From the NCBI GenBank assembly GCA_951812955.1, contig OX638340.1, forward strand, positions 128,001-192,000: a stretch of DNA of 64,000 nucleotides, read 5' to 3'. This stretch comes from an uncultured Gemmatimonadota bacterium. Lineage in GTDB: Bacteria; JAAXHH01. The position numbers were made by a program, and so were the translations under genes. Shown piece by piece: positions 12,362-59,263 of this stretch (position 1 is its first letter; each line of letters starts with the position of its first letter). The notes beneath the pieces are model-generated. The model was not told where the DNA came from and did not search any database. It was given only the letters and a program-made list of their open reading frames with translations.

Positions 12362-12389
12362 GGCTGTCACTACGTGCCGGCGTGAAGAC

Positions 12390-16383: not shown

Positions 16384-16439
16384 TCAGGGCCGGACAGGAA
16401 ATGGCCACGCTGGACCGGACCCGAGGCGGGATGCCTCCC

Positions 16440-16575
16440 GATCAGACCAGGCTGGATTGCTGGTCGCGGGCACGATGGGCTTCCCGATCAGACCAGGCTG
16501 GATTGCTGGTCGCGGGCACCATGGGCTTCCCGTTCAGACCAGGCTGGATTGCTGGTCGCGGGTACGATGGGATGA
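16440..16575. repeat. 46-bp unit repeated three times in tandem; the third copy contains the real stop and last codons of the minus-strand hydantoinase-fusion gene
   Basis: Copies 1 and 2 differ at one position. Copy 3 is diverged and encodes …RDQQSSLV*. An out-of-frame ORF (16442..16843) ends with the same peptide. Confidence 0.8.
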
Positions 16576-20316: not shown

Positions 20317-20469
20317 GGGTGTTCTCCGGACCGTGTTGACGAAAAACGATCTGTGTCCTATACTATCGAAAGGCTCGTGTGAAGGGCTCGCAGAACGGAG
20401 TGCGGAAGCTGCATGCCGGAGCACGGCAGCATCCGACAGGTCCTATCGAAGATACAGCTGGACGAATAT

Positions 20470-26839: not shown

Positions 26840-26878
26840 TCGAAGCATGATCGAAGCACGATCCGAAGTACGATCAGG
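26827..26878. repeat. 11-bp unit GATCGAAGCAT repeated ~4 times, starting inside the last codons and stop of the upstream enolase-superfamily gene
   Basis: The gene ends …ttg atc gaa gca tga. This is followed by tcgaagcatga tcgaagcacga tccgaagtacgatcag, whose later copies are decayed. Confidence 0.75.
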
Positions 26879-26892
26879 GATTAAGGAATACC

Positions 26893-28083: not shown

Positions 28084-28122
28084 CCCGGGTTACCAACCGA
28101 ATCACCAATATGTGGAGTGAAC

Positions 28123-29112: not shown

Positions 29113-29189
29113 CTCCTTTCGAGTGGAGGCGTGATTCCTTTCGAATAAAGGCATGGTTCCTATCGAGTAGAGGCGCGATCCCTTTCGAG
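29102..29189. repeat. Four decaying tandem copies of a 22-bp unit that begins with the last codons and stop of the Gfo/Idh/MocA gene
   Basis: The copies are tggaggcgtgactcctttcgag / tggaggcgtgattcctttcgaa / taaaggcatggttcctatcgag / tagaggcgcgatccctttcgag. The gene ends …P M E A *. Confidence 0.8.
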
Positions 29190-29266
29190 GATCCGGGTAC
29201 ACTTCACCCCACATTACCGTATCATTGAAATCTAGCGGTGTACCATTGAAATATTGAGGAGCCCCA

Positions 29267-32004: not shown

Positions 32005-33300
32005 TCAGTGGATCTGTGCCAGATCCTCCCAGAAGCGCGGATAGGTCTTCCCCACCACGTCCGGATCGAGGATGTTCAGGTTACCCAACCGGGTCCCCAG
32101 CACGGCGAAACTCATGGCCATGCGGTGGTCGTGGTAGGTCTCAATATCTACGGTATCTTCGGTGCGCCGTGCGGTAGTATTCCCCGGTAGTTCGCCGATC
32201 TCGATGTAGTCCGGGCCGGTCTTCACTTCAATACCGATTTTTCGCAGCTCGGTCGCGGGACACTCGATCCGGTCACACTCTTTCTTCTTCAGTGTGCCAA
32301 TCCCCGTAATCCTTGTTGAGCCGGGAATCAGCGGTGATATGGCTATCAGGGTCAGGGCGGCGTCCGGAATGTCTGCGCAGTCTATCGCGCCGTCCACCGG
32401 CGTAACGTGACCGGCATCGGGACCGGCAATGACGGATTTTTGGTCCTCCATCTGAACGCGCGCTCCCAGGCTTTCGCAAACGGAAAGAAACCGCATATCG
32501 CCCTGCCGGCTCGCCGAACCGAGGTTCTCGAAGACCACGCTTCCTCCGTGTATGAGGGCGAGCGCTGCGAAGTACGAACCAGCGGAAGCATCTCCTTCCA
32601 CCGACCGGGAACCGGCGCGGTACTGTTGTGGAGCGACATCGAACCCGCGGTAATCGCGGTTCGCCACTTCGACGCCGAACTTACGCATCTCATCGAGGGT
32701 GATGTCGACGTACGGCCGGCTGACAAGATGGCCTTCGACCTGTATATCAAGTCCGTCGGGAAGCAAAGGCGCAATCTGCAGCAGGGCGGAGAAGAACTGG
32801 CTGGAAACATCGCCTTTCATCCGGACCGAACGGCGGAACGTACCGGGTCCTCTAATGGATACAGGTAAGCATCCGCCATTAGCAGCTTCTGTCGCTCCCC
32901 CTAATTGTTCCACCGCATCGAGCAGCGGCAGGTTCGGTCTTTCGTTCAGGCTGCCCCGTCCAACCAGTCTGGTTTCCTCGGTTCGCAGGGCGGAGAGCGC
33001 GATCAGGAATCGGGCCGATGTGCCGCTGAGTCCAAGACCAAGCGTTACAGGACCATTCGAAAAACGGCCGCCTTTCCCTTCTACGGTCAACGTTCGATAG
33101 TCTTCACTCGTTTCGATGGAAATCCCTAGGTCGCCCAGGCACTCCACCATTTCTCGCGTGTCGTCACAGTCGCAAGGCGAGGCGATCTCGGTCGTCCCTT
33201 CGGCCAGCGCGGCGAGCACCAGGTTTCTCAGCGTTATGGATTTGCTTCCTGGCAAATCGATAAACGCATTAATGGAATTACGAAACGTATTAACTAACAT
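32005..33300 (-). CDS. aroA: 3-phosphoshikimate 1-carboxyvinyltransferase (EPSP synthase)
   Basis: LPGSKSITLRNLVLAALAEGTT signature near the N-terminus. 431 aa. Confidence 0.85.
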   Translation of the reverse strand: MLVNTFRNSINAFIDLPGSKSITLRNLVLAALAEGTTEIASPCDCDDTREMVECLGDLGISIETSEDYRTLTVEGKGGRFSNGPVTLGLGLSGTSARFLIALSALRTEETRLVGRGSLNERPNLPLLDAVEQLGGATEAANGGCLPVSIRGPGTFRRSVRMKGDVSSQFFSALLQIAPLLPDGLDIQVEGHLVSRPYVDITLDEMRKFGVEVANRDYRGFDVAPQQYRAGSRSVEGDASAGSYFAALALIHGGSVVFENLGSASRQGDMRFLSVCESLGARVQMEDQKSVIAGPDAGHVTPVDGAIDCADIPDAALTLIAISPLIPGSTRITGIGTLKKKECDRIECPATELRKIGIEVKTGPDYIEIGELPGNTTARRTEDTVDIETYHDHRMAMSFAVLGTRLGNLNILDPDVVGKTYPRFWEDLAQIH

Positions 33301-34203: not shown

Positions 34204-34800
34204 CTAAGCAGCATTAAACCACCACTCCGGCCACCCGAGCACCAGTTCCGCCAGCGCGGAGTATCCGCCAGCGCCCGGATGAACCCGGTCACCGAGTGCG
34301 GCTTCGCTCCGCCAGACCTCACCGGTATTCAGATCATGGATCACCTCGAGGTAGGGCACGCCGAGTCTTCCGGCGATTTCGCCGATGAGCGAAGAAACCT
34401 CCATCCTGCGGCCGTGTTCCTCCTCGTCGATCCCGGGCGGCGGTCCGATCATCAACGTGGGTAAAAGCGATCGCGCGCGTGACAGAATCTCTTCGGTGTT
34501 GCGCACGGTATCGGCCCGTTCCACGCGCGGCTTCCCATCTATGAACCAGCAGTCGTTTGCGCCGAAGCCGAAGACCACCCGGCCGTCATGAGGTATAAGG
34601 CGCCTGGCCTCGACTTCCCGTTCCCATCGCCGGAGCACGTCCGCGCTCGTGTCACCGCGAATGCCGAGATTGTAGCTCGTGATGGAGGTTTCGTCGGACC
34701 TCGATGCGGCACACGCGCGCCCCGGCCATCCAAGATAGGCGGGATCACCGGTACCGTTCACGTAGGAATCACCTATAAAGTATACACGAATGTCTTCCAT
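34204..34800 (-). CDS. SGNH/GDSL-family hydrolase
   Basis: GDSY block I near the N-terminus (VYFIGDSYVNG). Block V has DGVHP-like spacing (DRVHPGAGG). Confidence 0.75.
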   Translation of the reverse strand: MEDIRVYFIGDSYVNGTGDPAYLGWPGRACAASRSDETSITSYNLGIRGDTSADVLRRWEREVEARRLIPHDGRVVFGFGANDCWFIDGKPRVERADTVRNTEEILSRARSLLPTLMIGPPPGIDEEEHGRRMEVSSLIGEIAGRLGVPYLEVIHDLNTGEVWRSEAALGDRVHPGAGGYSALAELVLGWPEWWFNAA

Positions 34801-34812
34801 AAATCCTTCGGT

Positions 34813-34868
34813 TCTCTAAATCCGCTCGTTCTCTCCGCTCTGTTCTCTCCGTTTTGTTCTCTCCGCTT
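34813..34868. repeat. Three tandem copies of GTTCTCTCCG(C/T)T in the 5' region of the GDSL hydrolase gene, followed (34895-34930) by a 9-bp-stem inverted repeat TTCCGTGAC…GTCACGGAA
   Basis: Read directly from the sequence. Confidence 0.6.
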
Positions 34869-35096
34869 TGCCATCCTGCCATGCTGTATATCCTCACGTC
34901 TTCGGTTCCGTGACGTGATTCAGGATCCGGTCACGGAAGCCGAAAACGCCTTTAGCATACGAATTCCGAGTGTATTTATCAATTGCCAATTTCGTCGCAG
35001 CGTGGAAAATTGGTAATGAGTATGGTAATGGGAATCATGTATTGAAACACGTCGCATGACCGACGCATTATCCAGGCTTTCCGGGAGAACGCCACC

Positions 35097-41926: not shown

Positions 41927-42094
41927 CGTATTGCACGATGGAGGGATCCGTTGGGCGGTACGCGGAACGAGCAGGCCGGAAAAACCCAATACGCGGAACA
42001 AGCAGTACGCGGACCAAGCAGGCCAGAGCCTGCAAGGTACGAGCTGCGATAAATGGTTCGCTGTAACGAGTACGCAGATACAAGGGGTAAGCTG

Positions 42095-44884: not shown

Positions 44885-46240
44885 ATGGCCAATGTCCTCC
44901 TGCTCATGTCCGACGAGCACAATCCGTTCTACGCTTCAGTCTACGGCCATTCCTTCGTGCATACCCCGGCCATGGACCGGCTCGCGGAGAACGGGGTCGT
45001 CTACGAGAGCGCCTACTGTCCCTCGCCCCTGTGCACGCCCAGCAGGTCCGCCTTCATGTCGGGACGCCGGGTCCACCAGATACAGGCCTATTCCAACTGC
45101 ACAATCGGCGTGGAGCCGGATATACCGACCTATGGACGCGCCCTGGCCGAACAGGGGGTTCATTCCGTGCACGTGGGCAAGACCCACGTTTACGCTCCGA
45201 GCAGTGGACTGGGATTCCGTGAGACGCGGAACGCCGTGGAGAATATGGGCGCCGGCGATCTGGAAATCGGCCGCCGTCCTTTCCGTATCAGGCGAGCGGC
45301 CGCGGAACGGGCCACCCAGTTCGGCGTGAAAGCATCGCATCTCCGGGTCGACCTGGACCGCGTCGACGCCGCCATAGACTGGATATCAAATACCGCGCCG
45401 ACCCTGGATACGCCGTGGACGCTCTCGGTAAACATCATCCATCCCCACTTCCCCCACTATACGTCGCAGGAACTCTGGGATCTCTATCCGCAAGGCGGCG
45501 ATCTGCCGGAGTACGGGACGGATCGGGAGACTGCGAACCACCCCAGGGCACGGGAAGTCAGGGAGCACTTCCAGACGGACGCGTTCACCGAGGAACAGGT
45601 ACGGGGACAGCGGCGGGGATACCTGGCGTGCGTGACGTTCGTGGACCGGCAGCTGGCGCGGCTTATCGAAGCGCTGAAGGCATCGGGACAATACGACGAT
45701 ACGAATGTCATTTACACGTCGGACCACGGCGAAATGCTTGGAAAGTTCGGCATGTGGTGGAAGTGTTCTCTCTACGAAGACGCGAGCCGGATCCCATGCA
45801 TCGCGGCGGGACCCGATTTTCCTGCGGATCTGCGCGTGTCGACGCCGGTGGACCTCCACGATGTACAGGCGAGCCTCTTCGAATCGACCGGCGCCGACCG
45901 TCCAATCGACTGGGTGGGGCGGCCTCTGCAGAACATGCCCGAACAGGATGACCAGCGCGTCGTTTTCTCCGAATACCATGGCCACGGCGTTCGCCAAAGT
46001 GCCTTCATGATCCGAAAAGGCAGATGGAAGTACATTCACCACCTTAACGCGCCGCACCAACTGTTCGACCTGGACCGGGATCCCGATGAACTGCAGAACG
46101 TGCATGGCGCGTGCGCCGAGGTGGCCGCAGACCTGGAGCGGGAGCTCCGCGCGATCTGCGATCCGGAAGTGGAGAACGACCGCGCGGATCGATTCATTGA
46201 AACGCAACTTGCGTCCATGTCGTCGAGTGGCCCATCGTAG
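44885..46240 (+). CDS. Cys-type sulfatase
   Basis: Signature C-T-P-S-R-S-A-F-M-S-G-R and the N-terminal LLLMSDEHN motif. Confidence 0.9.
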   Translation: MANVLLLMSDEHNPFYASVYGHSFVHTPAMDRLAENGVVYESAYCPSPLCTPSRSAFMSGRRVHQIQAYSNCTIGVEPDIPTYGRALAEQGVHSVHVGKTHVYAPSSGLGFRETRNAVENMGAGDLEIGRRPFRIRRAAAERATQFGVKASHLRVDLDRVDAAIDWISNTAPTLDTPWTLSVNIIHPHFPHYTSQELWDLYPQGGDLPEYGTDRETANHPRAREVREHFQTDAFTEEQVRGQRRGYLACVTFVDRQLARLIEALKASGQYDDTNVIYTSDHGEMLGKFGMWWKCSLYEDASRIPCIAAGPDFPADLRVSTPVDLHDVQASLFESTGADRPIDWVGRPLQNMPEQDDQRVVFSEYHGHGVRQSAFMIRKGRWKYIHHLNAPHQLFDLDRDPDELQNVHGACAEVAADLERELRAICDPEVENDRADRFIETQLASMSSSGPS

Positions 46241-46285
46241 CGAGCCCATCGTAACAAGCCCATCTGAATAAGCAAACGGAGCGAA

Positions 46286-47695
46286 ATGAGCGGGAAACGA
46301 TTGCTAGGAATCACCGTTCTGGCCGACTTCATCCTGAACGAGGGGGTGGAGTCCGTGCTGGACAATCTCGTCGAACGGGCCGGCGCCACAGCCGTGGCGC
46401 TGAACCCCACGGTGACCGCGCCGTCGGAGGAGGGGGCCGGTTCCTTCCAGCCACCCACCGACGCCGGAAGCAGTCCAAGGCTCTTCGATCGTCCCCTGTG
46501 GGGCCGGCGCTCGCTCTGGGTCCGTAGCGCGCCCAGTTATCACCCCCGAACCTCGTACTATGCCGATACTCCGTACAAGCCCCGCGCGCCGAACGAGTTG
46601 ACCGACGAGCATGGCGATCTGGTCGGACGATTCATCGACGCGGCCCTGGACCGGGGACTCAAGGTCTACCTGCAGTTGAGCGGCGCGACGCCACCCGGAC
46701 TCCTGGACGACGACCGGCCGCGACGGCCGGACGGACAACTGCCGGACCGCATGGCCGACACGGGATGTCTCGCCAGCGAGGCGATCCGGGCTTACATCGC
46801 GGCCTACGTGCGCGACCTGTTGGAGCAGTACCCTCGGATTACAGGATTCCGGCCGGACTGGCCCGAGTATCCCTGTTACAAGCTGGACGAAGCCTTTCAG
46901 GATTTCAATCCACAGGTGGCGCACTGGGCGGCGGCCCATGGATTCGACTACGCGTCCATACACCGGGAGGTCCTGGCGGCGTTCGAATATCTGCACGGAC
47001 GGCTCGAGAACGGTGATCTGCTGGACTTCAGCGGTCCCGGCCGGGGCACGGCGACGCTGGCTGAACTGCTCCGTTCCTCACCGGGTATCGTGGAGTGGAT
47101 GCGCCTTAAGTCCGCCCTGTCCAACGACCTGCTGCGCCACTGGAGGACCGTCGTCACGGACCATGGCGGACCCGAAATGGAGCTGTCTGCCAACGCCTTC
47201 ATGCTTCCGCTCACCCTGTGGACGGGCTTCGATTTCCGTGAAGCGGCGAAACTCTGCGACGCCCTGTCTCCCAAGCTGTATACCATGCACTGGTCGGTCA
47301 TGGTGGAATTCTGGGGGCGGGTACTCCTGAAGCACAATCCCGGCCTGGACGAGCGGCTTCTGGTGCGTTCGCTCGCCCATCTCTTCGACCTGGGCGATGA
47401 AATCACGGCCACACGCATCGATCAATACAGGTATCCCGATCCCGACGAGCCCCATCCCATTCCCGACAACGTCCAGAGTCGGCGGATCGAGCAGGTCTGC
47501 GCCGAAGTGAACGGCCGCGCGTTGGTCACCCCGCTGATGCACGGTTACGGCCCGCACCACGACTTCGTCCGGCGTTTCAGGGTGGTGGCGGAAAGCCCGG
47601 CCGATGGCGTATGGATCAATCGTTACGGGTACCTCAGCGACGAAAAGCTGGATGCGGTGGGGCGCATATGGCGGCGAGCAGACCGAGCAACTTGA
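46286..47695 (+). CDS. Hypothetical protein embedded in the sulfatase locus (no family recognised; possibly a TIM-barrel hydrolase-like fold)
   Basis: 469-aa ORF with a coding-like composition. It sits between two sulfatase genes. Confidence 0.5.
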   Translation: MSGKRLLGITVLADFILNEGVESVLDNLVERAGATAVALNPTVTAPSEEGAGSFQPPTDAGSSPRLFDRPLWGRRSLWVRSAPSYHPRTSYYADTPYKPRAPNELTDEHGDLVGRFIDAALDRGLKVYLQLSGATPPGLLDDDRPRRPDGQLPDRMADTGCLASEAIRAYIAAYVRDLLEQYPRITGFRPDWPEYPCYKLDEAFQDFNPQVAHWAAAHGFDYASIHREVLAAFEYLHGRLENGDLLDFSGPGRGTATLAELLRSSPGIVEWMRLKSALSNDLLRHWRTVVTDHGGPEMELSANAFMLPLTLWTGFDFREAAKLCDALSPKLYTMHWSVMVEFWGRVLLKHNPGLDERLLVRSLAHLFDLGDEITATRIDQYRYPDPDEPHPIPDNVQSRRIEQVCAEVNGRALVTPLMHGYGPHHDFVRRFRVVAESPADGVWINRYGYLSDEKLDAVGRIWRRADRAT

Positions 47696-47745
47696 CGGCG
47701 CCTGCTGGACGAGGTGGGCCGCATCTGGCGGCGCACTCGAAAGGA
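47647..47745. repeat. Two imperfect tandem copies (~57 bp) spanning the 3' end and stop of the hypothetical gene
   Basis: Copy 1 encodes LDAVGRIWRRADRAT*. Copy 2 (ctggacgaggtgggccgcatctggcggcgcactcga) would encode LDEVGRIWRRTR. Confidence 0.7.
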
Positions 47746-47750
47746 AACCA

Positions 47751-49277
47751 ATGACCCGGCCCAACATCCTGTTCATCATGACGGACCAGCAGCGCTTCGA
47801 TACCATCGCCGCGCTGGGGAACGACGTCATCCACACGCCTAACATGGATCGCCTGGTGCGCCGGGGCGTTTCCTTTACCCGGGGCTACTCGACCTGCCCC
47901 GTCTGTGTGGCGGCGCGGACGACCATCCGCACCGGTTGTGATCCGCCCACTACCCGCGTATTCAGTAACAGCCGGTCCGCTCCTGTGCCAGGCCAGGCCG
48001 GTACGCTTGAAGGCCGGTGCGGGGACTATCTTGCACGTACCCTGTCGGCGATGGGCTACCGAACCTTCGGCGTGGGAAAGTTCCACACGGCCCCATGGGA
48101 TGAAGACATCGGATATGAATCCCAGCTGCATAGCGAGGAGCTTTACGCCAGCCCGCGTCAGCGTCGGGAGGAAGCCTACGCGGGATGGATTGCGCGGGAA
48201 CATCCGGAATTCGACTATATCGAAGCGCTCATGGGGGAACGGACTGAGATGTACTACATGCCCCAGGCGAGTCCGCTGCCCGCCCACCTGACCTTGGAAT
48301 CCTGGGCGGCCGACCGCTCGATCGAGGCATTGCAGCAACCCGGCGATCGGCCGTTCTTCGGCTTCGTGTCCTTCATCGGTCCTCATCCGCCCTTTGCGCC
48401 GCCTGTACCCTTCAATCGGATCTACGATCCCGACCGTATGCCCGGTCCGGTTCGGGGCGAAAAGGCGGTGGACCACATGGACGAGCAGATACCCTACATG
48501 AACCGGATCATCTGGGCGGACGAGATCAACGATGCCTTGACACGGACTCTAAAGGCCCGTTATTACGGAGAGATCACCTACATCGACGATTGCCTGGGAC
48601 GGATACTGGATGCCGTCGAGGCCAGGGCGGACGCCAATGATACGCTCATCTGCTTTTTCTCGGACCACGGCGACCATCTCGGCGACCATACGGCTTGGCA
48701 AAAGGAGAGTTTCTTCGACGTTTCGGCACGGGTGCCTTTCCTGGTAAGCTGGCCCGCCCGGCTTCCGCGGGATGTCCGCCGAGACGACCTGGTCTGCCTG
48801 ACCGATCTGTTTGCCATCGCCACCCATGCCGCCGGACAGACCCAGGTCCGCGACGGTGTCGACGTACTCGGCGCAATCGAAGGCAGCGTCTCGCCGAGGG
48901 AGCACCTCTTCGGATATTACGGCGAGCCGGGAACGGACCGGTTCAAAATCATGGTCCGAAGCGAAGACTGGAAATACATTTACCTGGCCAACGGAGGTGG
49001 GGAGCAACTCTTCAATACGGCCGAAGACCCCGCCGAGATCGCGAACAGGATCGAGACCGATCGGGACGTGGCGGACGGTCTGTATCGCTGTGCAGTGGAA
49101 GCATGTGGCCATCCAGGCGCTTCCGGTGCCCTGGTTGGCAAGAACCTGAGGTCCTTTCCCTACACCAGGTGGAAGGCCTCGCGGATATACCAGTTCGACC
49201 GCTCGCGGGATGTGCGGGGGTTTCCCGGTCATCCCAGCGAAGTGTTGGGTCCCTGGATCCGTCGCGGCCGCAGATAA
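47751..49277 (+). CDS. Sulfatase with a variant active-site motif C-V-A-A-R-T-T-I-R-T-G (Pro replaced by Ala)
   Basis: ILFIMTDQQRFD metal-binding N-terminus. The motif keeps the R(+4) and TG(+9/+10) spacing but has Ala at +2. The ATG at 47751 is preceded by AAGGAA. The ORF opens at 47604. Confidence 0.85.
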   Translation: MTRPNILFIMTDQQRFDTIAALGNDVIHTPNMDRLVRRGVSFTRGYSTCPVCVAARTTIRTGCDPPTTRVFSNSRSAPVPGQAGTLEGRCGDYLARTLSAMGYRTFGVGKFHTAPWDEDIGYESQLHSEELYASPRQRREEAYAGWIAREHPEFDYIEALMGERTEMYYMPQASPLPAHLTLESWAADRSIEALQQPGDRPFFGFVSFIGPHPPFAPPVPFNRIYDPDRMPGPVRGEKAVDHMDEQIPYMNRIIWADEINDALTRTLKARYYGEITYIDDCLGRILDAVEARADANDTLICFFSDHGDHLGDHTAWQKESFFDVSARVPFLVSWPARLPRDVRRDDLVCLTDLFAIATHAAGQTQVRDGVDVLGAIEGSVSPREHLFGYYGEPGTDRFKIMVRSEDWKYIYLANGGGEQLFNTAEDPAEIANRIETDRDVADGLYRCAVEACGHPGASGALVGKNLRSFPYTRWKASRIYQFDRSRDVRGFPGHPSEVLGPWIRRGRR

Positions 49278-49391
49278 GAGGCGACACGGCCGCAGATAAG
49301 AATCAGGGTGACCGGAGTTTGTCTCGGTTTTCCCCGCAATATCATTCTTGGGAATCCGCGCTCGAATCGACGAAGAGGAAGAGTTCATATC

Positions 49392-50738
49392 GTGAACCCC
49401 GTTGATACATCCACCGCAGTCCCGGCATCGGCCATGCCTTCCGCCGGAGGCGACCCGGTCCCCGTCCCGGCGTTCCACGTGATGATGAAACCCCGGGGGG
49501 CCATCTGCAATCTCGATTGCAAGTACTGCTACTTCCTCGCGAAGGAGGACCTGTACCCGGGCAGCGGATTCCGCATGTCCGAAGACCTGCTCGAAGAATA
49601 CATCCGGCAGTACATCGAGGCCCAGCAGGTACCGGAAGTCACCTTTGCCTGGCAGGGCGGCGAGCCCACGCTCATGGGACTGGACTTCTTCCGCAAAGCC
49701 GTTGAATTCCAGAAAAAACACCAGAAACCGGGAACGCGGCTATTCAACTCGCTGCAGACCAACGGTACGCTCCTCGACCGGGACTGGTGCCAGTTCTTTC
49801 ATGAAAACGACTTCCTGATCGGTCTTAGCCTGGACGGCCCCCGGGCGCTGCACGACGCCTACCGGGTCGACAAGGGCGGCAAACCGACCTTCGACACCGT
49901 AATGCGCGCCGCCGAGATGATGCAGTCCCACGAGGTCGAATTCAACATACTGACCACGGTGCACGCGGCGAACGCGGGGCACCCCGTCGAAGTCTATCGC
50001 TTCATGCGGGACGTGGTGAAGACCCGCTTTATCCAGTTCATTCCTATCGTGGAGCGGGACAACGAGACAGGGTACCAGGAAGGCAACGAAGTGACGAACC
50101 GGTCGGTGACGGGGAAGCAGTACGGCCGGTTCCTGATCGGGATTTTCGACGAATGGGTACGCCGGGACGTGGGGAATATGTACGTGCAGATATTCGACGT
50201 GTCGCTCGCTGCCTGGTCGGGCCAGAGCCCGGGTCTCTGCATATTCATGGAGACCTGCGGCGATGCCCTCGCCCTGGAGCACAACGGGGATCTATATTCC
50301 TGTGATCACTATGTCGAACCGGATTACAAGCTGGGGAATATCGCCGAAATACCCATGATGGATATGGTCCTGTCCGATCAGCAGCGGGCCTTTGGACAGG
50401 CCAAACTGGACACGCTTCCGCAATACTGCCTGTCATGCGACGTGCGGTTCATCTGCAACGGGGGTTGTCCGAAGAATCGTATCATAAACACGCCCGACGG
50501 CGAACCGGGCCTGAACTACCTGTGCGAGGGGTACAAGGCCTTCTTCCACCACATCGACGGTCCCATGCAATTTATGGCCAATGAACTGCGCAACCGGCGG
50601 GCTCCCGCCAACGTGATGTCGTACATCCGCCAGCGCGAATCCGAACTTCGGAAACAGCAGCAGTTTCAATCGGTGGGGCGAAACGATCCCTGTCCTTGCG
50701 GAAGCGGCCTGAAGTACAAGCGGTGCCACGGAAGGTAG
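49392..50738 (+). CDS. Anaerobic sulfatase-maturating enzyme (radical SAM/SPASM), with a C-terminal SEC-C metal-binding motif
   Basis: CNLDCKYCYF (Cx3Cx2C) and SPASM Cys clusters (CLSCDVRFICNGGCP). C-terminal DPCPCGSGLKYKRCHG. GTG at 49392 follows GAGGAAGAG by 8 nt. An alternative ATG lies at 49434. Confidence 0.85.
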   Translation: MNPVDTSTAVPASAMPSAGGDPVPVPAFHVMMKPRGAICNLDCKYCYFLAKEDLYPGSGFRMSEDLLEEYIRQYIEAQQVPEVTFAWQGGEPTLMGLDFFRKAVEFQKKHQKPGTRLFNSLQTNGTLLDRDWCQFFHENDFLIGLSLDGPRALHDAYRVDKGGKPTFDTVMRAAEMMQSHEVEFNILTTVHAANAGHPVEVYRFMRDVVKTRFIQFIPIVERDNETGYQEGNEVTNRSVTGKQYGRFLIGIFDEWVRRDVGNMYVQIFDVSLAAWSGQSPGLCIFMETCGDALALEHNGDLYSCDHYVEPDYKLGNIAEIPMMDMVLSDQQRAFGQAKLDTLPQYCLSCDVRFICNGGCPKNRIINTPDGEPGLNYLCEGYKAFFHHIDGPMQFMANELRNRRAPANVMSYIRQRESELRKQQQFQSVGRNDPCPCGSGLKYKRCHGR

Positions 50739-51653: not shown

Positions 51654-54014
51654 TCAGAAATGACGTGCCAGTTCCACGCCCCAGTAGGGCGGTTCGTTTA
51701 CGAATCCGGTCAGGTTGTTGAAATCGATACCGCCGGTGAGAGATACGTCGTCGAAGATGTTTCTGCCGACCAGGGAGATCTCCAGTCCGGACCCCCGCGC
51801 CAGGTAGGAGAGGCGGACCCCGCATTCCAAAAGCCGATCGTCCTGAAACTCCACGGATTCGTATAGAAAGAACCGGACCGCGCTGCGGTAGGCCAGATCG
51901 GCCGTGGCCACCAGGTAGGAGCCGTCCGGCAGGATCATGGGGTAGCGCAGGATGGCGTCCGCGATCCACCTGGGTGCCTGGGGCAGGCCGTTGCCGTCTA
52001 TCCTTACCGTGCCGGGCTCCCGCCCCGAGGGATCCAGCACGGTACAAGGAGCGCCACAGCCCTGTACGGCGAGTTCGTCATCTTCTATACGGGTATGATT
52101 ATAGCTCAGTCCGGTCGTAAGGCGCAGCCGGCCCGCCGGTGCGAGGGTTACTTCCGCTTCGAAACCCCTCCCCAGGGTCCGCTCCGCGTTGACCAGCCGG
52201 TTGAAATTGGCTTCGCCGCCTACCGCGGTGAGTTGCTGGTTGTGAAGACGGTAGTGAAATGCGGCCAGGTCGAGGCGAAGCCGGCCGTCCCAAAGGCGCA
52301 TTTTCGTTCCGCCTTCGATGGAATATATGGTCTCATTCCCTGCCACGGAGACCATATCGCCGAACAGCAGGCGTCCTTGTATGCTCGGTGCGCGGAACCC
52401 TCTGGCGGCGCGTATGTAAGTCTGCACGCCGGATGAGACCGTATAACGCATGCTCAGGTCGCCGCTCCACGCGCTGTCGGTGGGACTGCGGTGTATCGGT
52501 CCGATCCCACCGGCCCCGGAGACCGCTGGCGCTTCGACCCTTCTGGCGGTGTAGTCCTTCGCGTCACGGGAAAACCGCAACCCCCCGCCGATCTCCACGA
52601 TATCGCCCAGGTGCAGGGTGGAAGCCAGAAACGCGGCCCAGGCCTCGGCCTCCTGGTGTTGTCGGGTGTATCCGTCCTGCGTTCCACCGGCCAGGGTATC
52701 GTAATTGAAGTCGTCTATGTCGACCGACTCATTCAGGTAGTACAGGCCGAAAAGGTAATCGAGACGCCGGTGTTCCTGGCTGACCAGCCGGATTTCCTGG
52801 CTGACCTGGCGCAGGAAGGGGATGCCCCCCGCCGTTTCGGAAGGAAATGGTATCACGCCCGGACCGCTGGGTGGACTGAATACCGCACCGTAGCCGCCGT
52901 CTATGTCTCCGCGTGAAAAACTCTCGAGCCGTTCCATGCCTGTCAGCGAAACCAGTTCGTGGGTACCCGTCCGGTAGCGTACCTCTACCGTCATGCCATG
53001 GGAATTCAACTCCCGCGTATTTCGTCCATCTATCGCGATGCGGTCGCGGGAGAAACCTTCCGTCAGTCCGCCCCGGTCCGGTGCGATTACGTTGGCGCGG
53101 AACAATCGGGCGGAGCCGTCGAGATCCCGGCCATGGATATTGACCAGCGCTTCAAGATCCGTCACGGGTTTCCAGCGCAACTGAAATCGGCCGGCCAGTT
53201 CCAGGTACCCCCCGAGCGCTGCATTCGGACCATTGTGCTCGTTATCCACCCAGTCGCCCCTCCGCTGCGCCAGCACCGAAAGACGGGCGGTGAGTGCTGG
53301 GGATCCGAGCGGTCCGGATACCGCCCCTTCGAAAGTGGCGCTGTTGAATCGCCCGTAACCCAGGCGGCCGAAACCTTCCGGTTCCTCGGTCGGCCGGGCA
53401 GATTCCAGCTTGACGATACCGGCCGGCGTGTTCCGGCCGAAAAGCGAGCCCTGGGGACCGCGGAGCACCTCGATCCGGGCGAGGTCGAATGCGGGATAGC
53501 CCTTCAACAACGCGTTTTCGAGTACGATGCCGTCGTAGACCACGGAAACAGGCTGCGAAGCGTTCAGGTCGAAGTCCGTGTTGCCCAGGCCCCGGATGTA
53601 AAAGCGGGGGAAAATCCGGCCGTAGGAGGACTCCATATGCAAACTGGGCACCCGGTTCGAAAGGAATCGAAGGTCCATGCCCGATGAACGGAGCACTTCG
53701 GACTTCCCTTGCTGAATCGTGGAAAGGGACAGTGGGACTTCGAATGCGGGTTGTTCGCGTTTCCGCGCGGTGACCACGACCTCTTCCATCAGGATCGGTG
53801 CGCCGGCCGTGCCGCGTGTTTCCGCGTCGTCCGTGGCCTGCCGAGTGTCTGCCGAGGTGCGCGGGTCCGTGTCCTGCGCGGCCGCGTTGTTCGTTGTAAA
53901 TACAAAGATCACAGTCAGGACGGTCAGAACCGCCATTAGAAGAACGGTTTCCGCCTTGCGTCTCCGCGAAGCCTGAACGGAATCGAATATACAGTTCGCA
54001 GTCGGTGTAATCAT
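51654..54014 (-). CDS. TonB-dependent outer-membrane receptor
   Basis: Signal peptide, plug region (VVTARKREQPAFEVPLSLSTI), beta-barrel and a C-terminal …ARHF. The ORF opens at 54257; the start is assigned near MITPTAN and is uncertain. Confidence 0.8.
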   Translation of the reverse strand: MITPTANCIFDSVQASRRRKAETVLLMAVLTVLTVIFVFTTNNAAAQDTDPRTSADTRQATDDAETRGTAGAPILMEEVVVTARKREQPAFEVPLSLSTIQQGKSEVLRSSGMDLRFLSNRVPSLHMESSYGRIFPRFYIRGLGNTDFDLNASQPVSVVYDGIVLENALLKGYPAFDLARIEVLRGPQGSLFGRNTPAGIVKLESARPTEEPEGFGRLGYGRFNSATFEGAVSGPLGSPALTARLSVLAQRRGDWVDNEHNGPNAALGGYLELAGRFQLRWKPVTDLEALVNIHGRDLDGSARLFRANVIAPDRGGLTEGFSRDRIAIDGRNTRELNSHGMTVEVRYRTGTHELVSLTGMERLESFSRGDIDGGYGAVFSPPSGPGVIPFPSETAGGIPFLRQVSQEIRLVSQEHRRLDYLFGLYYLNESVDIDDFNYDTLAGGTQDGYTRQHQEAEAWAAFLASTLHLGDIVEIGGGLRFSRDAKDYTARRVEAPAVSGAGGIGPIHRSPTDSAWSGDLSMRYTVSSGVQTYIRAARGFRAPSIQGRLLFGDMVSVAGNETIYSIEGGTKMRLWDGRLRLDLAAFHYRLHNQQLTAVGGEANFNRLVNAERTLGRGFEAEVTLAPAGRLRLTTGLSYNHTRIEDDELAVQGCGAPCTVLDPSGREPGTVRIDGNGLPQAPRWIADAILRYPMILPDGSYLVATADLAYRSAVRFFLYESVEFQDDRLLECGVRLSYLARGSGLEISLVGRNIFDDVSLTGGIDFNNLTGFVNEPPYWGVELARHF

Positions 54015-54287
54015 ATCGGCTCGAATGAAAATGTGAGTATGCGGAAAGTTCAGATCGAGTATTTTTCGAGCAATTATGGATAGCGCGGGTACGTGCGTGA
54101 TTGGCATCGAAACGGACGGCAATTTGACGAGTCCGGCTCGTCCTGTCAAGCGCAACATCTCGAACGCGGAAAGCCCATTCATTCCTTCAGCCAGGTGCGA
54201 TTCGGTCCACTGAATTCGCTTGTAAGCAGACCTTTGTGAAGGTATTTTTCGCCACAAACCTCCCTGCTCATGAATAGGAGACTAAAC

Positions 54288-55238
54288 ATGATATCGAAGT
54301 CAGCCATCCTCGCATCGGTTCTGTGCATGCTGGCATACCTTTCCTTCCCGACGGATTCTTCCGCAATGGCCGGGGAAAACCGCAGCCGCCAGGGGTTCTA
54401 CTTCGTGTTGCAGGCCGGCGTATCCGTTCCCGGCGATTTCGAGTCCACGCGAACGAACACCGACAGTGTTCCCACGAATTGCGATCAGTGGCTTCCCGGT
54501 GAGACACTGAACGATGGAACCAGGGTTCCCCTTCCGCTTTCCGAGTGCTCGACCCGAACGTTTCTTGCAAGCCCCAACCAGTTCGACCTGGGATCCGGTG
54601 TTATGGCTGGAGTCCAGATTGGTTATGCCCTTAGGGCCCTGCGCGTCGAAGGCGAGTATTTTCGCAGAGGACAGAGCGGAGCGCTCCTGCCATTGGTTAT
54701 ACCGGGGGATGAGAAACAGGCGGAATTCGTCGAGCGCAGCGAGAAGATCAGCGATTTCCGGTCAGATCACCTTTTTGCCAATCTCTATTACGACTTTAAC
54801 GGCATGCTGTCGCCAGATGCTCTGCCCTACCTGGGTGTGGGGATCGGGATGGCCAGGCAGCAGTTCTTCTATTCGGCCGTGTCCGTTCGGACGAACGACC
54901 GGGACAGAATGCGGCAACTCGGACGGAACTCTCACGCGGCCGGCCTGGCATCACTCGCCGATGCCACGCTCTCCGACAGGATATTAACGTTCCAGTTCCT
55001 CGCCGGCGTCGACTACGCCATGGGCGAGTGGTTTTCGGCCGATCTGAAACTGAGGTACGGCAGGACCGGTGAGTTTCTGGACGGCGAGAACACCTGGAGA
55101 CTGCTGCGCGGGCACGAATCCACCGTGGGACCGACTTCCGAAACCGGCTCCGATATGCCGGTTTTATACGAAATCAAGGGAAGCCCCGCTCAATTCTGGG
55201 GTATATCCCTGGGCCTGCGGTATCAAATCGGAGGCTAG
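54288..55238 (+). CDS. Outer-membrane beta-barrel protein (OmpA-like/porin family, probable)
   Basis: Signal peptide MISKSAILASVLCMLAYLSF. Alternating amphipathic beta-strand pattern. RBS AGGAGA lies upstream of the ATG at 54288. Confidence 0.5.
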   Translation: MISKSAILASVLCMLAYLSFPTDSSAMAGENRSRQGFYFVLQAGVSVPGDFESTRTNTDSVPTNCDQWLPGETLNDGTRVPLPLSECSTRTFLASPNQFDLGSGVMAGVQIGYALRALRVEGEYFRRGQSGALLPLVIPGDEKQAEFVERSEKISDFRSDHLFANLYYDFNGMLSPDALPYLGVGIGMARQQFFYSAVSVRTNDRDRMRQLGRNSHAAGLASLADATLSDRILTFQFLAGVDYAMGEWFSADLKLRYGRTGEFLDGENTWRLLRGHESTVGPTSETGSDMPVLYEIKGSPAQFWGISLGLRYQIGG

Positions 55239-55822: not shown

Positions 55823-57439
55823 CTATCTTTCCACACGCTCGACCCGCGCTTCCATCAGCAGCCAGGAATCGGGGTCGAGCAGGACCTCACCGGGTGCTTC
55901 GTCGAGGTCGAAGCGAAACTCGTGGGATCTCTCAAGCAACTCGATCTGCCTCCGTTGTTCCCGGTCTCCATCCGCGAAGGCCAGGGTTACGGGTAGCCGG
56001 AAAGGCTCTTGCCGCTGGGTCTGCCGTACCTGCATGGCGACTTCCCCGGTTCTCTCGTCCCATGTCCAGGTCGCCTCGACCACGGGATGTCCCGCACGGA
56101 AGATCCACTGTTCGAAGAACCAATCAAGTGAACTCCCGTACCGGGCTTCCATAACAGCCCGGAAATCCCTGGTCAACACGGTCTGGTCGCGGAATTCGCG
56201 GTAGAAGCGCCGTATGCCGTCGAAGAAGGCTTCGTCCCCCATCAGGCCCCTCAGCATGTGGAGCACCAGCCCGCCCTTGCTGTAGTTGTAAGCGTTCAAT
56301 AGATCGAACAGGTCCGTTATCGCGGGATTGATTATGGGCGCGGGAGCGCGGCGGTTCGCCTCGATATACCGGGCCCTGCTCCGGGACAGCATCTGGTGAA
56401 ATCGTTCATCGCCTTCTGCTTCTTCGAAAAACAGTGCGCCGAAGTAGGTTGCGAACCCTTCGCTGAGCCACAGGTGGTGCCAGTCGGACTCGGTCACCGA
56501 GTCGCCAAACCATTGGTGGGCGATCTCGTGGGCAATAGTCAGCTCGCCCATTTTGGCACCCAATATAGACTTTTCCGAGAAAAAGATGGCACTGGCGTTC
56601 TCCATGCCGCCGAACCGGGTGGAAGACTGTACCAGCGCGAGTTTCGCGTAGGGATAAGGCCCAATCAGGTCGGTGTAGAAGGCCAGCATGTCCGTGGAAC
56701 GGGAAAAATCCGTTATTCCCGCGTCCCGGTCGCCGGGAAAGAGGTAGTATGAAACGGGGATCCCCTGCCAGGACCCCGGTCGGATAATAGAAAAGCGCGC
56801 TGCTCCGACGACCATGCAGTAGGTGGGGATGGGCGCGTCGGTCTTCCAGTGCGTTCGTTTCCTTGCAGGCGAGAGGGTCGTCGTTTCCAACAGACGGCCA
56901 TTGGCCACTACGTCGTAGGCCGCGGGCGCGGTGACGATGAACTCGGCCGTGGCCTTGTCATAGGGGTGGTCCACCCCGGGGAACCAGTGCCGGGCCCGGT
57001 TCGGCCAGTTGTCCGCGAACACCGACCGGTCGCCGAACTTGTTCGCCTGGATGAACAGGCCGTCCACGGGCTCGCCGTGATAGATCACTGCCACCGCAAC
57101 CGTGTCGCCCACGGCATGGCCGTCCCCCAGCGTAACGCGCAATCGGCCGTCCCGGTGCTCAAAGGCCGCGATTTCGCCGTCGACCGTCACCCGGTCCACG
57201 GTGAGCGAACCCAGGTCGAGGGGCAGGACGTCCCGTCTGCCGGCCAGCATCGCCGCCAGGATCGTGGTTTCGCCCTGGATGGCCTTGCCTGTTTCACCGA
57301 TATCCAGGCTGATCCGGTAATGGAGGATGTCCACGTCGTCCAGGCGGGCGTATCCGTCGCTGGCCTGGCCGGCAGCGGGCGAAAGGCCCGGGAGGAGCAG
57401 CACCGCCGTGATGATCCACCTAGTGATCCACTTCTTCAT
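55823..57439 (-). CDS. M1-family zinc aminopeptidase (aminopeptidase N-like), secreted
   Basis: HEIAHQWFG (HExxH) followed by the …LWLSEGFATY Glu ligand. GAMEN-like GGMENAS. Signal peptide MKKWITRWIITAVLLLPG, with an AGGAGG RBS. Confidence 0.9.
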   Translation of the reverse strand: MKKWITRWIITAVLLLPGLSPAAGQASDGYARLDDVDILHYRISLDIGETGKAIQGETTILAAMLAGRRDVLPLDLGSLTVDRVTVDGEIAAFEHRDGRLRVTLGDGHAVGDTVAVAVIYHGEPVDGLFIQANKFGDRSVFADNWPNRARHWFPGVDHPYDKATAEFIVTAPAAYDVVANGRLLETTTLSPARKRTHWKTDAPIPTYCMVVGAARFSIIRPGSWQGIPVSYYLFPGDRDAGITDFSRSTDMLAFYTDLIGPYPYAKLALVQSSTRFGGMENASAIFFSEKSILGAKMGELTIAHEIAHQWFGDSVTESDWHHLWLSEGFATYFGALFFEEAEGDERFHQMLSRSRARYIEANRRAPAPIINPAITDLFDLLNAYNYSKGGLVLHMLRGLMGDEAFFDGIRRFYREFRDQTVLTRDFRAVMEARYGSSLDWFFEQWIFRAGHPVVEATWTWDERTGEVAMQVRQTQRQEPFRLPVTLAFADGDREQRRQIELLERSHEFRFDLDEAPGEVLLDPDSWLLMEARVERVER

Positions 57440-57516
57440 GTTGTGTTCCTCCTTGACACGTTTCGCGGTCTTTCTCATATATTCTCCGCACACTTCCATC
57501 CATAACGAAAGGGCCG

Positions 57517-58302
57517 ATGGGCATGGTCCGTCTTACAGACGAGGACATCCGATTCTTCGTCCGCGAAGGCTACCTGATCAAACGCGGCGTGCTGAACCCC
57601 GACCTGATGGCCATGGGACGGGAACGCATGTGGCGGAATCTGCCGCCTCCCCTCGAACGCGGTAAACCGGCAACCTGGATCGGACCCTTTGCCGAACCGG
57701 TCGACGACGGCGCGTCCCACAGGCACAGGTTCATGTGGAAGTACCGGGAACCCGGCGGAGAGGACTGGATGTTGCGACTCCTGGCCACCGATCCTTCCGT
57801 GATGGGCATGGCGGAACAGCTCCTGGGGGAAGGAACGCTGGTCGACCCAGATCGCATCCGCGGTATTTACTGCGTCCTGCCCGAGGGCGACGCACCGCCC
57901 CGTCCCCTGGGTTGCCACGTGGACGCCCATCCCTTTCACCTCGGCGTCGTGGGATACATCGACGACGTGAGTCCGAAGGGTGGCGGATTCACCGTCTGGC
58001 CGGGCAGCCATCGGATATTCTATCCCGATTTCCCCACGCGTTACTGCTTCGAACGAACCCCCTCGTACCAGGCGCACCTGGAAGAGGTGAACCGGATGCC
58101 TTACGCAGACTGTCACGGCAATGCCGGAGACATCGTCTTCTGGCACCACCGCATGGGCCATTCAGTCGGCCACAACCGGTCCACCCGGATCCGCCAGGCG
58201 GTCCTCTACGACTACAAGCGGACGGACCTGGACGAGAACGCGCCTCCCGGCGACAACATGTGGGTGGATTGGCCCGGCGTCCGTGCCGTTTTAGCATCTT
58301 GA
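57517..58302 (+). CDS. PhyH-family Fe(II)/2-oxoglutarate dioxygenase (third paralog in the window)
   Basis: PhyH-like motifs (FFVREGYLI…HVDAHP…H). Confidence 0.75.
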   Translation: MGMVRLTDEDIRFFVREGYLIKRGVLNPDLMAMGRERMWRNLPPPLERGKPATWIGPFAEPVDDGASHRHRFMWKYREPGGEDWMLRLLATDPSVMGMAEQLLGEGTLVDPDRIRGIYCVLPEGDAPPRPLGCHVDAHPFHLGVVGYIDDVSPKGGGFTVWPGSHRIFYPDFPTRYCFERTPSYQAHLEEVNRMPYADCHGNAGDIVFWHHRMGHSVGHNRSTRIRQAVLYDYKRTDLDENAPPGDNMWVDWPGVRAVLAS

Positions 58303-58395
58303 CATGTGGGTAGACTGGCCCGGCGTCCGTGCCGTTTTAGCATCTTGACATGTGGGGTAGACTGGCCAGGCGTCCGTGCCTTACTGGCGTCTTGA
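58265..58395. repeat. 46-bp unit repeated three times in tandem, beginning inside the last codons and stop of the PhyH gene and filling the gap to the convergent MTAP gene
   Basis: Copy 1 (…ggcccggcgtccgtgccgttttagcatcttga) contains the real stop. Copy 2 is near-identical. Copy 3 is diverged. Confidence 0.85.
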
Positions 58396-58399: not shown

Positions 58400-59263
58400 C
58401 TACTCGAAGTAGCGGCCCACGATCGGCTTCAGCTTCTCCAGCGTGCCGCCGGGTACCGAATCCCGGTCGGAAACGATGGCGTTGGCCAGCGCGTTGTGAC
58501 AGCGGCACGTGCTTTCCACCGGGATGGCCGGCACCACGTGGCGGACGACCTGCCGCGCCTGTTCCACGTTGGCGTGCAGGTTCTCGATGATCATGTCGAC
58601 GGTGACGGCGTCGTGATCTTCGTGCCAGCAGTCGTAGTCGGTGGAACACGCGATCGTGGCGTAGCAGATCTCGGCCTCCCGGGCCAGCTTGGCTTCCGGC
58701 GCGGCCGTCATGCCGATGACCGAGAACCCCCAGCCCCGGTAAACGTTCGATTCCGCCCTGGTCGAGAACTGGGGTCCCTCCATGCAGAGATAGGTGCCGC
58801 CGTCATGTACCGTCAACCCCGTCGATTCAGCGCCGTCGACGAGCAGTTTGCGCAAGGGGCCGCAAAAGGGTTCGGCGAGGCCCACGTGCACGACGAGATC
58901 GTTGCCGAAGAAGCTGGTCGCGCGGTGCCGCGTATGGTCGTACAGCTGATCCGGAATGACGAAGTCCCGCGGACGTATGTGCTCCTGGAGACTGCCCACC
59001 GCGCTGACCGACAGGATCCACTGCACGCCCAGCGTCTTCAGCGCGAAGATGTTCGCCCGCACGTTAATTTCAGACGGCCCGATGCGGTGGCCGCGGCCGT
59101 GACGTGCCAGGAAAGCCACGCGCCGGCCCTCGAGGGTGCCGGTCACGATTGCGTCGCTGGGATCGCCGAAGGGGGTGGCGGGCCGGACCTCCTTGAGATC
59201 CGTCAGGCCTTCCATACCGTAGAACCCCGTGCCGCCGATAACCGCGATCTGCGCGTTCGCCAT
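58400..59263 (-). CDS. mtnP: S-methyl-5'-thioadenosine phosphorylase
   Basis: MANAQIAVIGGTGFY…, a PNP/MTAP family-2 N-terminus and conserved body. 287 aa. Confidence 0.88.
   Translation of the reverse strand: MANAQIAVIGGTGFYGMEGLTDLKEVRPATPFGDPSDAIVTGTLEGRRVAFLARHGRGHRIGPSEINVRANIFALKTLGVQWILSVSAVGSLQEHIRPRDFVIPDQLYDHTRHRATSFFGNDLVVHVGLAEPFCGPLRKLLVDGAESTGLTVHDGGTYLCMEGPQFSTRAESNVYRGWGFSVIGMTAAPEAKLAREAEICYATIACSTDYDCWHEDHDAVTVDMIIENLHANVEQARQVVRHVVPAIPVESTCRCHNALANAIVSDRDSVPGGTLEKLKPIVGRYFE

Follow-up and report, generated by a model that had tools for sequence, protein, structure and literature searches.

Recurrent tandem duplication of gene 3' ends in a clade of uncultured sponge- and coral-associated bacteria

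Tandem arrays at gene ends of the window

The stretch of DNA analysed here, referred to as the window, is a 64-kb segment of contig OX638340.1 from an uncultured Gemmatimonadota bacterium. It has 60.7% G+C, is 89% coding and carries ~50 genes with a clear codon-position G+C signature. An earlier note, made from the sequence alone, described six genes in it whose last codons and stop codon are repeated in tandem immediately downstream. Using Tandem Repeats Finder (TRF), an ungapped direct-repeat scan, in which arrays with a score of at least 30 were considered strong, and inspection of the sequence, we confirmed all six arrays (Table 1). TRF recovered four of them, at the hydantoinase, MR_MLE, Gfo/Idh/MocA and PhyH ends. 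The DegT array (10983-11072) and that of the hypothetical gene (47646-47759) are too divergent for TRF and clear in the sequence; their ungapped direct-repeat scores are 42 and 40, respectively, and the maximum among 62 mid-gene control windows is 23. The gene labels were supported by Pfam for five genes (DegT aminotransferase, fused hydantoinase A/B, MR_MLE enolase-superfamily, Gfo/Idh/MocA and PhyH), and gene 46286-47695 has no Pfam match. The six arrays are not the full set, since two arrays absent from the earlier note, at 46231-46272 and 49261-49304, and possibly a third, at 12320-12399, add to it. The stop-associated arrays of the window therefore concern 8-9 of ~50 gene ends, and are distributed over both strands (6 of 33 plus-strand genes and 3 of 17 minus-strand genes).

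Table 1. Tandem arrays of the window, and in-frame N-terminal duplications in orthologues of window genes
Feature	Position	Strand	Repeat	TRF result
DegT aminotransferase gene 11045..12277, end	10983..11072	-	~30 nt x3	
Fused hydantoinase A/B gene 16534..20424, end	16436..16573	-	46 nt x3	16436-16571, 46 nt x3.0, 95% identity
MR_MLE gene 25814..26839, end	26826..26881	+	11 nt x3 perfect + 2 decayed copies	26826-26875, 11 nt x4.4
Gfo/Idh/MocA gene 28117..29112, end	29103..29190	+	22 nt x4	29104-29189, 22 nt x3.9, 78% identity
Sulfatase gene 44885..46240, end	46231..46272	+	14 nt x3	
Hypothetical gene 46286..47695, end	47646..47759	+	57 nt x2, 40/52 identical	
Sulfatase gene 47751..49277, end	49261..49304	+	22 nt x2	
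PhyH-family gene 57517..58302, end	58257..58395	+	46 nt x3	58256-58380, 46 nt x2.7, 94% identity
GNAT gene 12390..12905, downstream	12320..12399	-	20 nt x2 perfect copies (12320-12359)	
Upstream of gene 34204..34800 start	34808..34870	-	14 nt x3-4, no stop involved	
Wholly intergenic array	41955..42027	+	16 nt within 47-nt period, ~30 nt past stop at 41926	
Intragenic in-frame array in hydantoinase gene	18152..18222	-	21 nt x3.4	
Second intragenic in-frame array	52766-52806		21 nt x2	
In-frame N-terminal duplications, orthologues of 51654..54257	L003 14512-14668, L005 14515-14642, L024 14477-14579		45 or 63 nt	
In-frame N-terminal duplications, orthologues of 49308..50738	L009 10071-10157, L012 10109-10192, L036 10047-10133		39 nt	
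In-frame N-terminal duplications, orthologues of 55823..57499	L004 18101-18170, L036 17025-17110		12, 24 or 33 nt	

The first copy of the DegT array (11043-11072) contains the last 8-9 codons of the gene and its stop codon TGA (11045-47), and copies 2 and 3 are ~70% identical to it. At the hydantoinase end, copy 1 (16528-16573) comprises the last 12 codons, the stop codon TGA (16534-36) and 6 nt past the stop, and the copies are mutually identical at 42-45 of 46 positions. The MR_MLE stop codon TGA (26837-39) forms the opening of copy 2, while copy 1 of the Gfo/Idh/MocA array holds the last 2-3 codons and the stop codon TGA (29110-12); its later copies match copy 1 at 20/22, then at 16/22 and 17/22 positions. 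The three copies of the sulfatase-46240 array are CCCATCGTAGCGAG, CCCATCGTAACAAG and CCCATCTGAATAAG, with the stop codon TAG (46238-40) in the first, and copy 1 of the sulfatase-49277 array contains the stop codon TAA (49275-77). The unit of the hypothetical gene 46286-47695 covers its 3' end and stop codon TGA (47693-95), as well as the ribosome-binding site and ATG of the sulfatase gene starting at 47751. PhyH copy 1 consists of the last 15 codons plus the stop codon TGA (58300-02), and the array starts at 58256/58257 rather than at 58265, the position first given. The perfect copies behind the GNAT gene are accompanied by one or two decayed ones, which extend to the stop codon TAG (12390-92) of that gene; this is a possible ninth stop-associated array, in which the inclusion of the stop is uncertain.

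The distal copies were initially described as progressively more diverged. This trend is seen in the Gfo/Idh/MocA, PhyH, MR_MLE and sulfatase-46240 arrays, but not in the hydantoinase array, where the odd copy is copy 1, nor in the GNAT array, where the two distal copies are identical.

Each 46-nt unit of the PhyH array (58257-58395) is also a complete mini-open reading frame (mini-ORF; ATG...TGA, 14 codons) that begins 1 nt past the preceding TGA, and terminating ribosomes could in principle re-initiate along the array. This property is confined to the PhyH array.

Compared with the window and with one another, the units returned self-matches only, the cross-matches being chance words of at most 12 nt. 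The 10-mer AGCCCATCGT is common to the hydantoinase (16472-16481) and sulfatase-46240 (46230-46239) units, probably by chance, and other pairs share at most 8 nt. These comparisons bear on the idea that the arrays belong to a dispersed family of mobile or repetitive elements inserting at gene boundaries, in the manner of mycobacterial interspersed repetitive units (MIRUs), repetitive extragenic palindromic (REP) sequences or miniature inverted-repeat transposable elements (MITEs). The arrays do sit in short spacers at gene boundaries, insertion of MIRUs at start codons, with coupled small ORFs, has been described (PMC12548453), and the PhyH unit happens to be a complete mini-ORF. However, each unit matches its own array only, the units are continuous and homologous with the coding 3' end of single-copy orthologues, and terminal inverted repeats and hairpins are lacking. 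The dispersed-family explanation is thus effectively refuted, and the local character of the units, proposed from the outset against a REP or MITE origin, is upheld.

Arrays in related genomes

To place the arrays in a comparative context, related loci (labelled L) were collected from three sources. The anSME-like gene 49308-50738, searched against the GTDB species representatives, gave 36 loci, ~21 of them syntenic with 80-95% nucleotide identity. Homologues of the carbonic-anhydrase gene 20413-21063 gave seven more syntenic loci and a short fragment (L042), which provide orthologues of the 10-31 kb part of the window, and a metagenome scan with the PhyH protein gave 55 further loci. The syntenic relatives are sponge and coral metagenome-assembled genomes (MAGs) labelled Latescibacterota or Gemmatimonadota, several of which are single chromosomes of 3.7-3.9 Mb. 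The closest assemblies, 93-98% identical to the window, are L024 (OY762445.1, ~93.7%), L001 (JAPOOT01, 95.5%) and L046.

Arrays, either the same or different ones at the same gene ends, are present in ~28 independent assemblies, ranging from short-read scaffolds to chromosome-level MAGs, for instance OY762445.1 (L024) and OY843748.1 (L002/L039). If the arrays were artefacts of assembly or polishing, they would collapse to single copies in the reads; the organism is uncultured, and assemblers are known to handle tandem repeats poorly. Nevertheless, point substitutions distinguish the copies, and the same arrays recur in independent assemblies from different samples and technologies, such as the three-copy hydantoinase array in L037 and the three-copy PhyH array in L024 and L008, the latter array also being found with two copies in about eight other assemblies. 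Because the copies differ and recur in this way, an artefact is excluded for practical purposes.

At the PhyH end, three copies are present in L024 and L008, two in L002, L006, L010, L011, L017, L036 and L047, and one in L001, L004, L009, L012-15, L029 and L046. The array is partial in L005, where a deletion lies between GGCGTCC repeats inside a copy. The boundary of the 46-nt unit is identical across genomes, falling between TGA and CATGTGGG. Copies within a genome are more alike than they are to the orthologous copies, and the distal copy of L008, L017 and L036 resembles the C-terminus of the single-copy genomes. Since the latter end at the same stop codon, the PhyH protein is unaffected by the duplication. 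The stops of PhyH and of the convergent gene 58400..59263 are ~4 nt apart in the single-copy state and 97 nt apart in the window. For the PhyH gene, the closest relatives are L001 and L046 (95-98% identical to the window), and both have one copy, which indicates that arrays also contract.

The 46-nt hydantoinase array has three copies in L037, two in L038 and none in L041. In L041, the convergent hydantoinase and Nramp genes overlap by 4 nt, while the window has a spacer of 150 nt there, 138 of which are array. The DegT end has two-copy and other versions in L037 and L038, and a perfect 33-nt unit repeated three times plus 9 nt in L040. Different arrays occupy the GNAT spacer in L038, L043 and L044. 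The MR_MLE array is expanded in L037 and L038 (range, four to more than nine copies), and different units, of 22 nt and 34 nt, are found at this end in L040, L041 and L044. Arrays at the Gfo/Idh/MocA end are present in L037 and L038, and the single-copy state is present in L039 and L044. The second MR_MLE-Gfo/Idh/MocA spacer is, in addition, an insertion hotspot: in relatives it holds either a nucleotidyltransferase/HEPN pair, which is toxin-antitoxin-like, or an RVT_1 reverse-transcriptase gene (L038 18339-19044, L039 18122-18827, L040 19226-19934, L044 17950-18520; L041 20527-20591, L043 17890-19449), and neither insertion is present in the window or in L037.

The sulfatase-46240 end carries an array in 14 of 20 related genomes, with unrelated units and periods of 14, 18, 25, 36 and 71 nt; in L014, L015 and L030 the corresponding stretch is 48 nt long and free of arrays. 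The locus 47646-47759 exists in an 85-nt single-copy state in L004, L006, L013-15 and L030, and is duplicated in most others. Here the present TGA stop of gene 46286-47695 appears to be a decayed copy of the ATGA of the next gene, so that its C-terminus appears to have been remodelled. The claim that the copy terminating the gene is intact is borne out for PhyH, whose single-copy orthologues share its stop codon, but apparently not for gene 46286-47695. At the sulfatase-49277 end, the two copies of the window correspond to four in L024, and other units are found in L002, L007, L012 and L017. Altogether, at least one genome has an array at 17 of the 34 orthologous gene ends, and several periods are often seen at the same end. 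Between the window and L024, four of the seven indels of at least 3 nt are changes in array copy number, one of them a 45-nt in-frame change. The comparison of orthologues, a check proposed in the earlier note, thus depicts arrays that are clade-wide, fast-evolving and similar to variable-number tandem repeats (VNTRs).

Other differences and features were recorded in these regions. A segment of 274 nt inside a predicted gene (54425-54698, gene 54270..55238) is absent from L024, the closest of the chromosome-level relatives. The sulfatase genes 40445, 44885 and 47751 have no obvious signal peptides and adjoin a radical-SAM/SPASM maturase-like gene with a SEC-C zinc-binding motif at its end; this region (40445-50738) has a gene content typical of sponge symbionts. 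At 33300-33409 (TAACTAACATAGTATTAATATCATATCAATTATTATTTTAAATAATATTACG...), G+C falls to 30%, against 61% in the genome. This patch lies upstream of gene 32005..33300 on the minus strand, whose third-position G+C of 0.65 is below that of its neighbours, and it may be a promoter, an UP-like region or recently acquired DNA.

The abundance of arrays differs among lineages. Counted per 10 kb, arrays number 2.59 in the array-rich genomes of the clade, 0.47 in the sister group formed by L013-L016 and L030, 0.82 in the loci belonging to other phyla and 0.24 in marine contigs that contain PhyH homologues (166 kb in all), and 50 kb of E. coli K-12 has none; the clade density is thus ~5 times that of the sister group and ~10 times that of the other marine contigs. 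The sister group has the same genes in the same order. Arrays are found at 45 of 256 stops in the array-rich genomes vs 2 of 77 in the sister group (Fisher P = 3e-4, in a test that ignores shared ancestry). We infer that this excess reflects a raised mutational supply rather than weaker purifying selection.

The variation among genomes also bears on whether the arrays are kept because they are useful. They could separate overlapping or abutting genes, relieve convergent transcription or translational coupling, and serve as 3' untranslated regions (UTRs) or back-up stops. Consistent with this, overlaps or 4-nt gaps have become spacers of 50-150 nt (PhyH, hydantoinase/Nramp), every extra copy brings another stop codon, and many genomes have arrays at the same gene ends. 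On the other hand, copy number and unit sequence turn over rapidly, many close relatives are single-copy (L001 and L046 for PhyH), distal copies decay like neutral DNA, and no conserved structure is apparent. Moreover, where the period is not a multiple of 3, the extra stops are mostly out of frame, and the sister group manages the same gene order without arrays. Hence, we consider retention for a function quite improbable.

Placement, reading frame and origin of the arrays

Among the 13 arrays of the window that score at least 30, eight contain a stop codon. Random placement predicts 0.69, and none of 20,000 trials reached eight, in agreement with the initial impression that the count is far above chance. 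Under a null model that bars only placement wholly inside coding sequence (CDS), 3.96 +/- 1.57 stop-containing arrays are expected (P = 0.013). A similar picture was obtained from the related loci, in which direct-repeat scores of at least 30 were found around 75 of 361 stops (21%) in the clade vs 3 of 89 in loci of other phyla, and at mid-gene positions in 2 of 478 (0.4%) vs 1 of 144. Around starts, the corresponding values are 46 of 355 (13%) vs 2 of 91, and the positive start windows of the clade are mostly the stop-window arrays seen again through short spacers.

In 518 kb of array-rich genomes we counted 134 arrays, 39 of which are intragenic. The period of the intragenic arrays is a multiple of 3 in 38 of 39 cases by the direct-repeat scan and in 53 of 57 by TRF, while that of the stop-spanning arrays shows no bias (18:19:12 for period mod 3). 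The in-frame state of the former and the unbiased periods of the latter are a signature of selection. The other 95 arrays were compared with a null that allows any placement not wholly inside CDS. Stop codons are contained in 53 arrays (30.9 +/- 4.5 expected), start codons in 3 (30.3 +/- 4.5 expected) and neither in 41, which are wholly intergenic (41.7 expected); these classes add to more than 95 since two arrays contain both a stop and a start. Rough rates, ~2.8 arrays per kb of target around stops and ~0.125 per kb of CDS, are compatible with selective filtering of frequent duplications; the CDS rate would mean that about one in-frame duplication in eight is tolerated.

Arrays are not restricted to 3' ends. 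Among the strong in-frame arrays, 11 of 21 are located within the first 20% of the gene, and the N-terminal periods at a given gene differ between genomes (45 or 63 nt; 12, 24 or 33 nt; 39 nt; Table 1). In the window, the array at 34808-34870 carries the ribosome-binding site in its last copy and stems from the same process, here acting at a 5' end, and the intergenic array at 41955-42027 differs from that of L024 by 17 nt in copy number. The process acts on the 5' coding ends of genes as well as on their 3' ends and on spacers, and the period is constrained only where the frame must be kept.

Our preferred interpretation, to which we give a probability of roughly 0.65, is that the arrays are local, VNTR-like minisatellites: slippage-type short tandem duplications would be in excess throughout the lineage, and selection acting on a compact genome would have filtered them. 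In the clade, duplications 10-60 nt in length would arise and change in copy number unusually often, through slippage during replication or template switching at short direct repeats ~4-10 nt long; a raised supply of such duplications, or their lowered removal, would act together with a strong selective filter. A tandem duplication is expected to destroy only features that span the entire duplicated segment. Duplications inside genes would be removed by selection unless they are in frame and in a tolerant region, and those spanning a start would nearly all be removed, a spurious start being created upstream of the true one. Stop-spanning duplications would be harmless: the first copy would end the protein correctly, and the extra copies would become new spacer. 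The genome is compact (89% coding, with ancestral spacers of 0-20 nt and many overlapping genes), and co-directional spacers without arrays have a median length of 19 nt. With ancestral spacers of this size, most harmless segments of 20-60 nt would include a stop, and the first units would end near it. The survivors would accumulate at the 3' ends of genes, and this may be how a large part of the lineage's intergenic DNA was built. Of the two explanations offered in the earlier note, the one in which frequent duplications are tolerated where frame and stop are kept is the one favoured by the period, placement and start-codon data.

We infer slippage as the molecular route from the ends of the arrays. 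In young arrays, with at least 93% identity, the terminal partial copy is usually 4-10 nt long, as slippage would leave behind from a segment with a short direct repeat on either side; that of PhyH is only 1-2 nt. The 9-nt partial copy of the L040 DegT array and the L005 deletion between GGCGTCC repeats are individual examples. In array-free relatives, the sequence at the MR_MLE end is CTGAtcgaagcCTGA, which contains two 4-nt repeats located 11 nt apart, one of them with the stop, and the unit of the window is 11 nt long. Judged from these sequences, slippage between two CTGA/TGATC repeats at this distance is the probable origin of the MR_MLE array. RecA-independent template switching or slippage between short repeats is an established route of repeat gain and loss in bacteria (PMC7145654), and tandem duplication flanked by microhomology has been documented in other systems (PMC7643612).

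Several points weigh against an origin by duplication and selective filtering. The stop-spanning arrays exceed the tolerated-position null 1.7-fold in the clade and 2-fold in the window (P = 0.013). Divergent spacers, which contain promoters, are the longest (median ~230 nt) and yet the poorest in arrays, with 8 of 77 (10%) containing one, as compared with 25 of 80 convergent (31%) and 60 of 304 co-directional (20%) spacers, so that a filter model must assume strong constraint there. The counts across genomes are phylogenetically non-independent, the PhyH array, for example, being counted in 9 genomes. Starts were taken from a crude gene caller, which makes the classification of arrays at starts approximate, and the data represent a single 64-kb region and its orthologues. 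Additionally, a higher mutation supply is inseparable from weaker selection in a host-associated lineage. The stop excess and the array-poor divergent spacers can be explained by promoter constraint together with the shared ancestry of the counted arrays. They are also what a mutational process coupled to gene ends would produce, an option that we regard as unlikely.

Such a process would begin with the release of the ribosome at the stop codon. The RNA polymerase, now uncoupled, would pause, backtrack, form R-loops or collide with the replication fork or a convergent polymerase, and template switching would then produce duplications mainly at stops. Besides the two observations above, it finds support in the co-directional spacers, where 34 of 60 arrays start within the upstream gene and a further 8 start at most 10 nt from its stop (42 of 60 in total), while just 4 of 60 reach into the next start codon. 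This skew of the unit boundaries toward the stop, however, also follows from tiny ancestral spacers, and the single-copy state often has no spacer at all in which a terminator could be housed. When counted by stop codon, arrays are no commoner at convergent pairs (25 at 160 stops, 16%) than at co-directional ones (60 at 304, 20%), and a conflict between convergent transcripts was accordingly rejected as the cause. Nor would a process tied to 3' ends account for the recurrent in-frame N-terminal duplications or for wholly intergenic arrays at the expected rate.

The units also lack hairpin or terminator character. When the arrays and four units were each compared with 200 dinucleotide shuffles, folding z-scores ranged from -2.1 to +1.3, and a terminator or hairpin origin was rejected. 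A scan of 40 kb gave no more terminator-like sites than shuffled sequence did, with none inside an array on the sense strand, and Rfam covariance models gave no match at the gathering threshold over the whole window. The GC skew of the window is ~0 and flat, and hence uninformative with regard to a replication-strand effect. Only one intrinsic terminator in these 40 kb is convincing, with a 15-bp stem that precedes a T-run (55316-55348, minus strand). It is located in the 585-nt spacer downstream of gene 55823..57499, a gene end that has no array in 19 of 19 genomes. The earlier note's second explanation, a mechanism coupled to gene ends through terminators or pause sites, thus gained no support from folding, from the terminator scan or from the comparison of convergent pairs. 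A mechanism of this kind is not needed to explain the arrays, and we assign it a low probability.

There is also a small chance that the stop excess goes beyond survivorship, with duplication triggered at the ends of translation or transcription, or with a slippage-suppressing factor lost in the clade. A gene-end-coupled process, if true, would be a new kind of localised mutagenesis. If a factor has been lost, tandem duplication would be the main birth route of intergenic DNA, 3' UTRs and altered C-termini, such as that of gene 46286-47695.

Under selective filtering of frequent duplications, the clade offers a natural example of mutational bias and purifying selection shaping genome architecture, in which spacers can be made almost entirely from duplicated gene ends, and a case of uncultured sponge and coral symbionts marked by an unusual mutation spectrum. 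As the array-poor sister group has the same genes, the genetic cause could be looked for among repair and replication genes that differ between the two. The arrays could be used as high-resolution VNTR strain markers for the symbionts, and they are a trap for gene callers and assemblers.

Comparison with known repeat systems

A full-text literature search of incomplete coverage turned up no account of bacteria in which gene 3' termini are systematically and recurrently duplicated in tandem. Several known systems share some features with the arrays.

Diversity-generating retroelements (DGRs) also repeat a gene 3' end just downstream, as pairs of a variable and a template repeat (VR/TR). These pairs are far longer than the units described here. 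Moreover, the present copies are directly adjacent, number more than two and differ by mismatches of all types rather than adenine-specific ones, and no reverse transcriptase was found among the ten window genes scanned against Pfam. Clustered regularly interspaced short palindromic repeats (CRISPR) have unique spacers between copies, whereas the copies here abut, as was recognised when the arrays were first described.

REP sequences, the bacterial interspersed mosaic elements (BIMEs) and intrinsic terminators resemble the arrays in being located just downstream of stops, often between convergent genes. The arrays differ in having no palindrome, T-run, shared sequence or fold stability beyond that of shuffles.

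The MIRUs, which Supply et al. reportedly described in 1997 as tandem units in short co-directional spacers that touch stop and start codons, are the nearest known case by position, as they also sit in short spacers at gene boundaries. They consist of tandem units of 40-100 nt in short co-directional spacers, with ends that touch the neighbouring stop or start codons (PMC12548453). In contrast to the arrays, whose units are mutually unrelated and derived from the local gene, MIRUs are dispersed, share a consensus and are thought to be mobile. The short tandem repeats of plant mitochondria (PMC7643612) are similar in their rapid lineage-specific accumulation with short microhomologies; they belong to organelle non-coding or intron DNA and show no systematic capture of stop codons in a compact bacterial genome.

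The closest likeness is to VNTRs and minisatellites. Head-to-tail copies of 10-60 nt, differences in copy number between close relatives, partial terminal copies, homogenisation within arrays and in-frame periods inside genes are common to both; by their head-to-tail copies and copy-number variation the arrays are VNTRs, while their features are suggestive of an origin by slippage. The differences lie in scale and position. In this clade, the arrays occur at ~20% of gene ends rather than at a handful of contingency or typing loci, are mostly seeded from the last codons and the stop, have arisen independently with different units at the same gene end, and make up a visible share of the intergenic DNA. 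The phenomenon is thus real, clade-wide and unusually frequent, and the mechanism behind it is probably an ordinary one.

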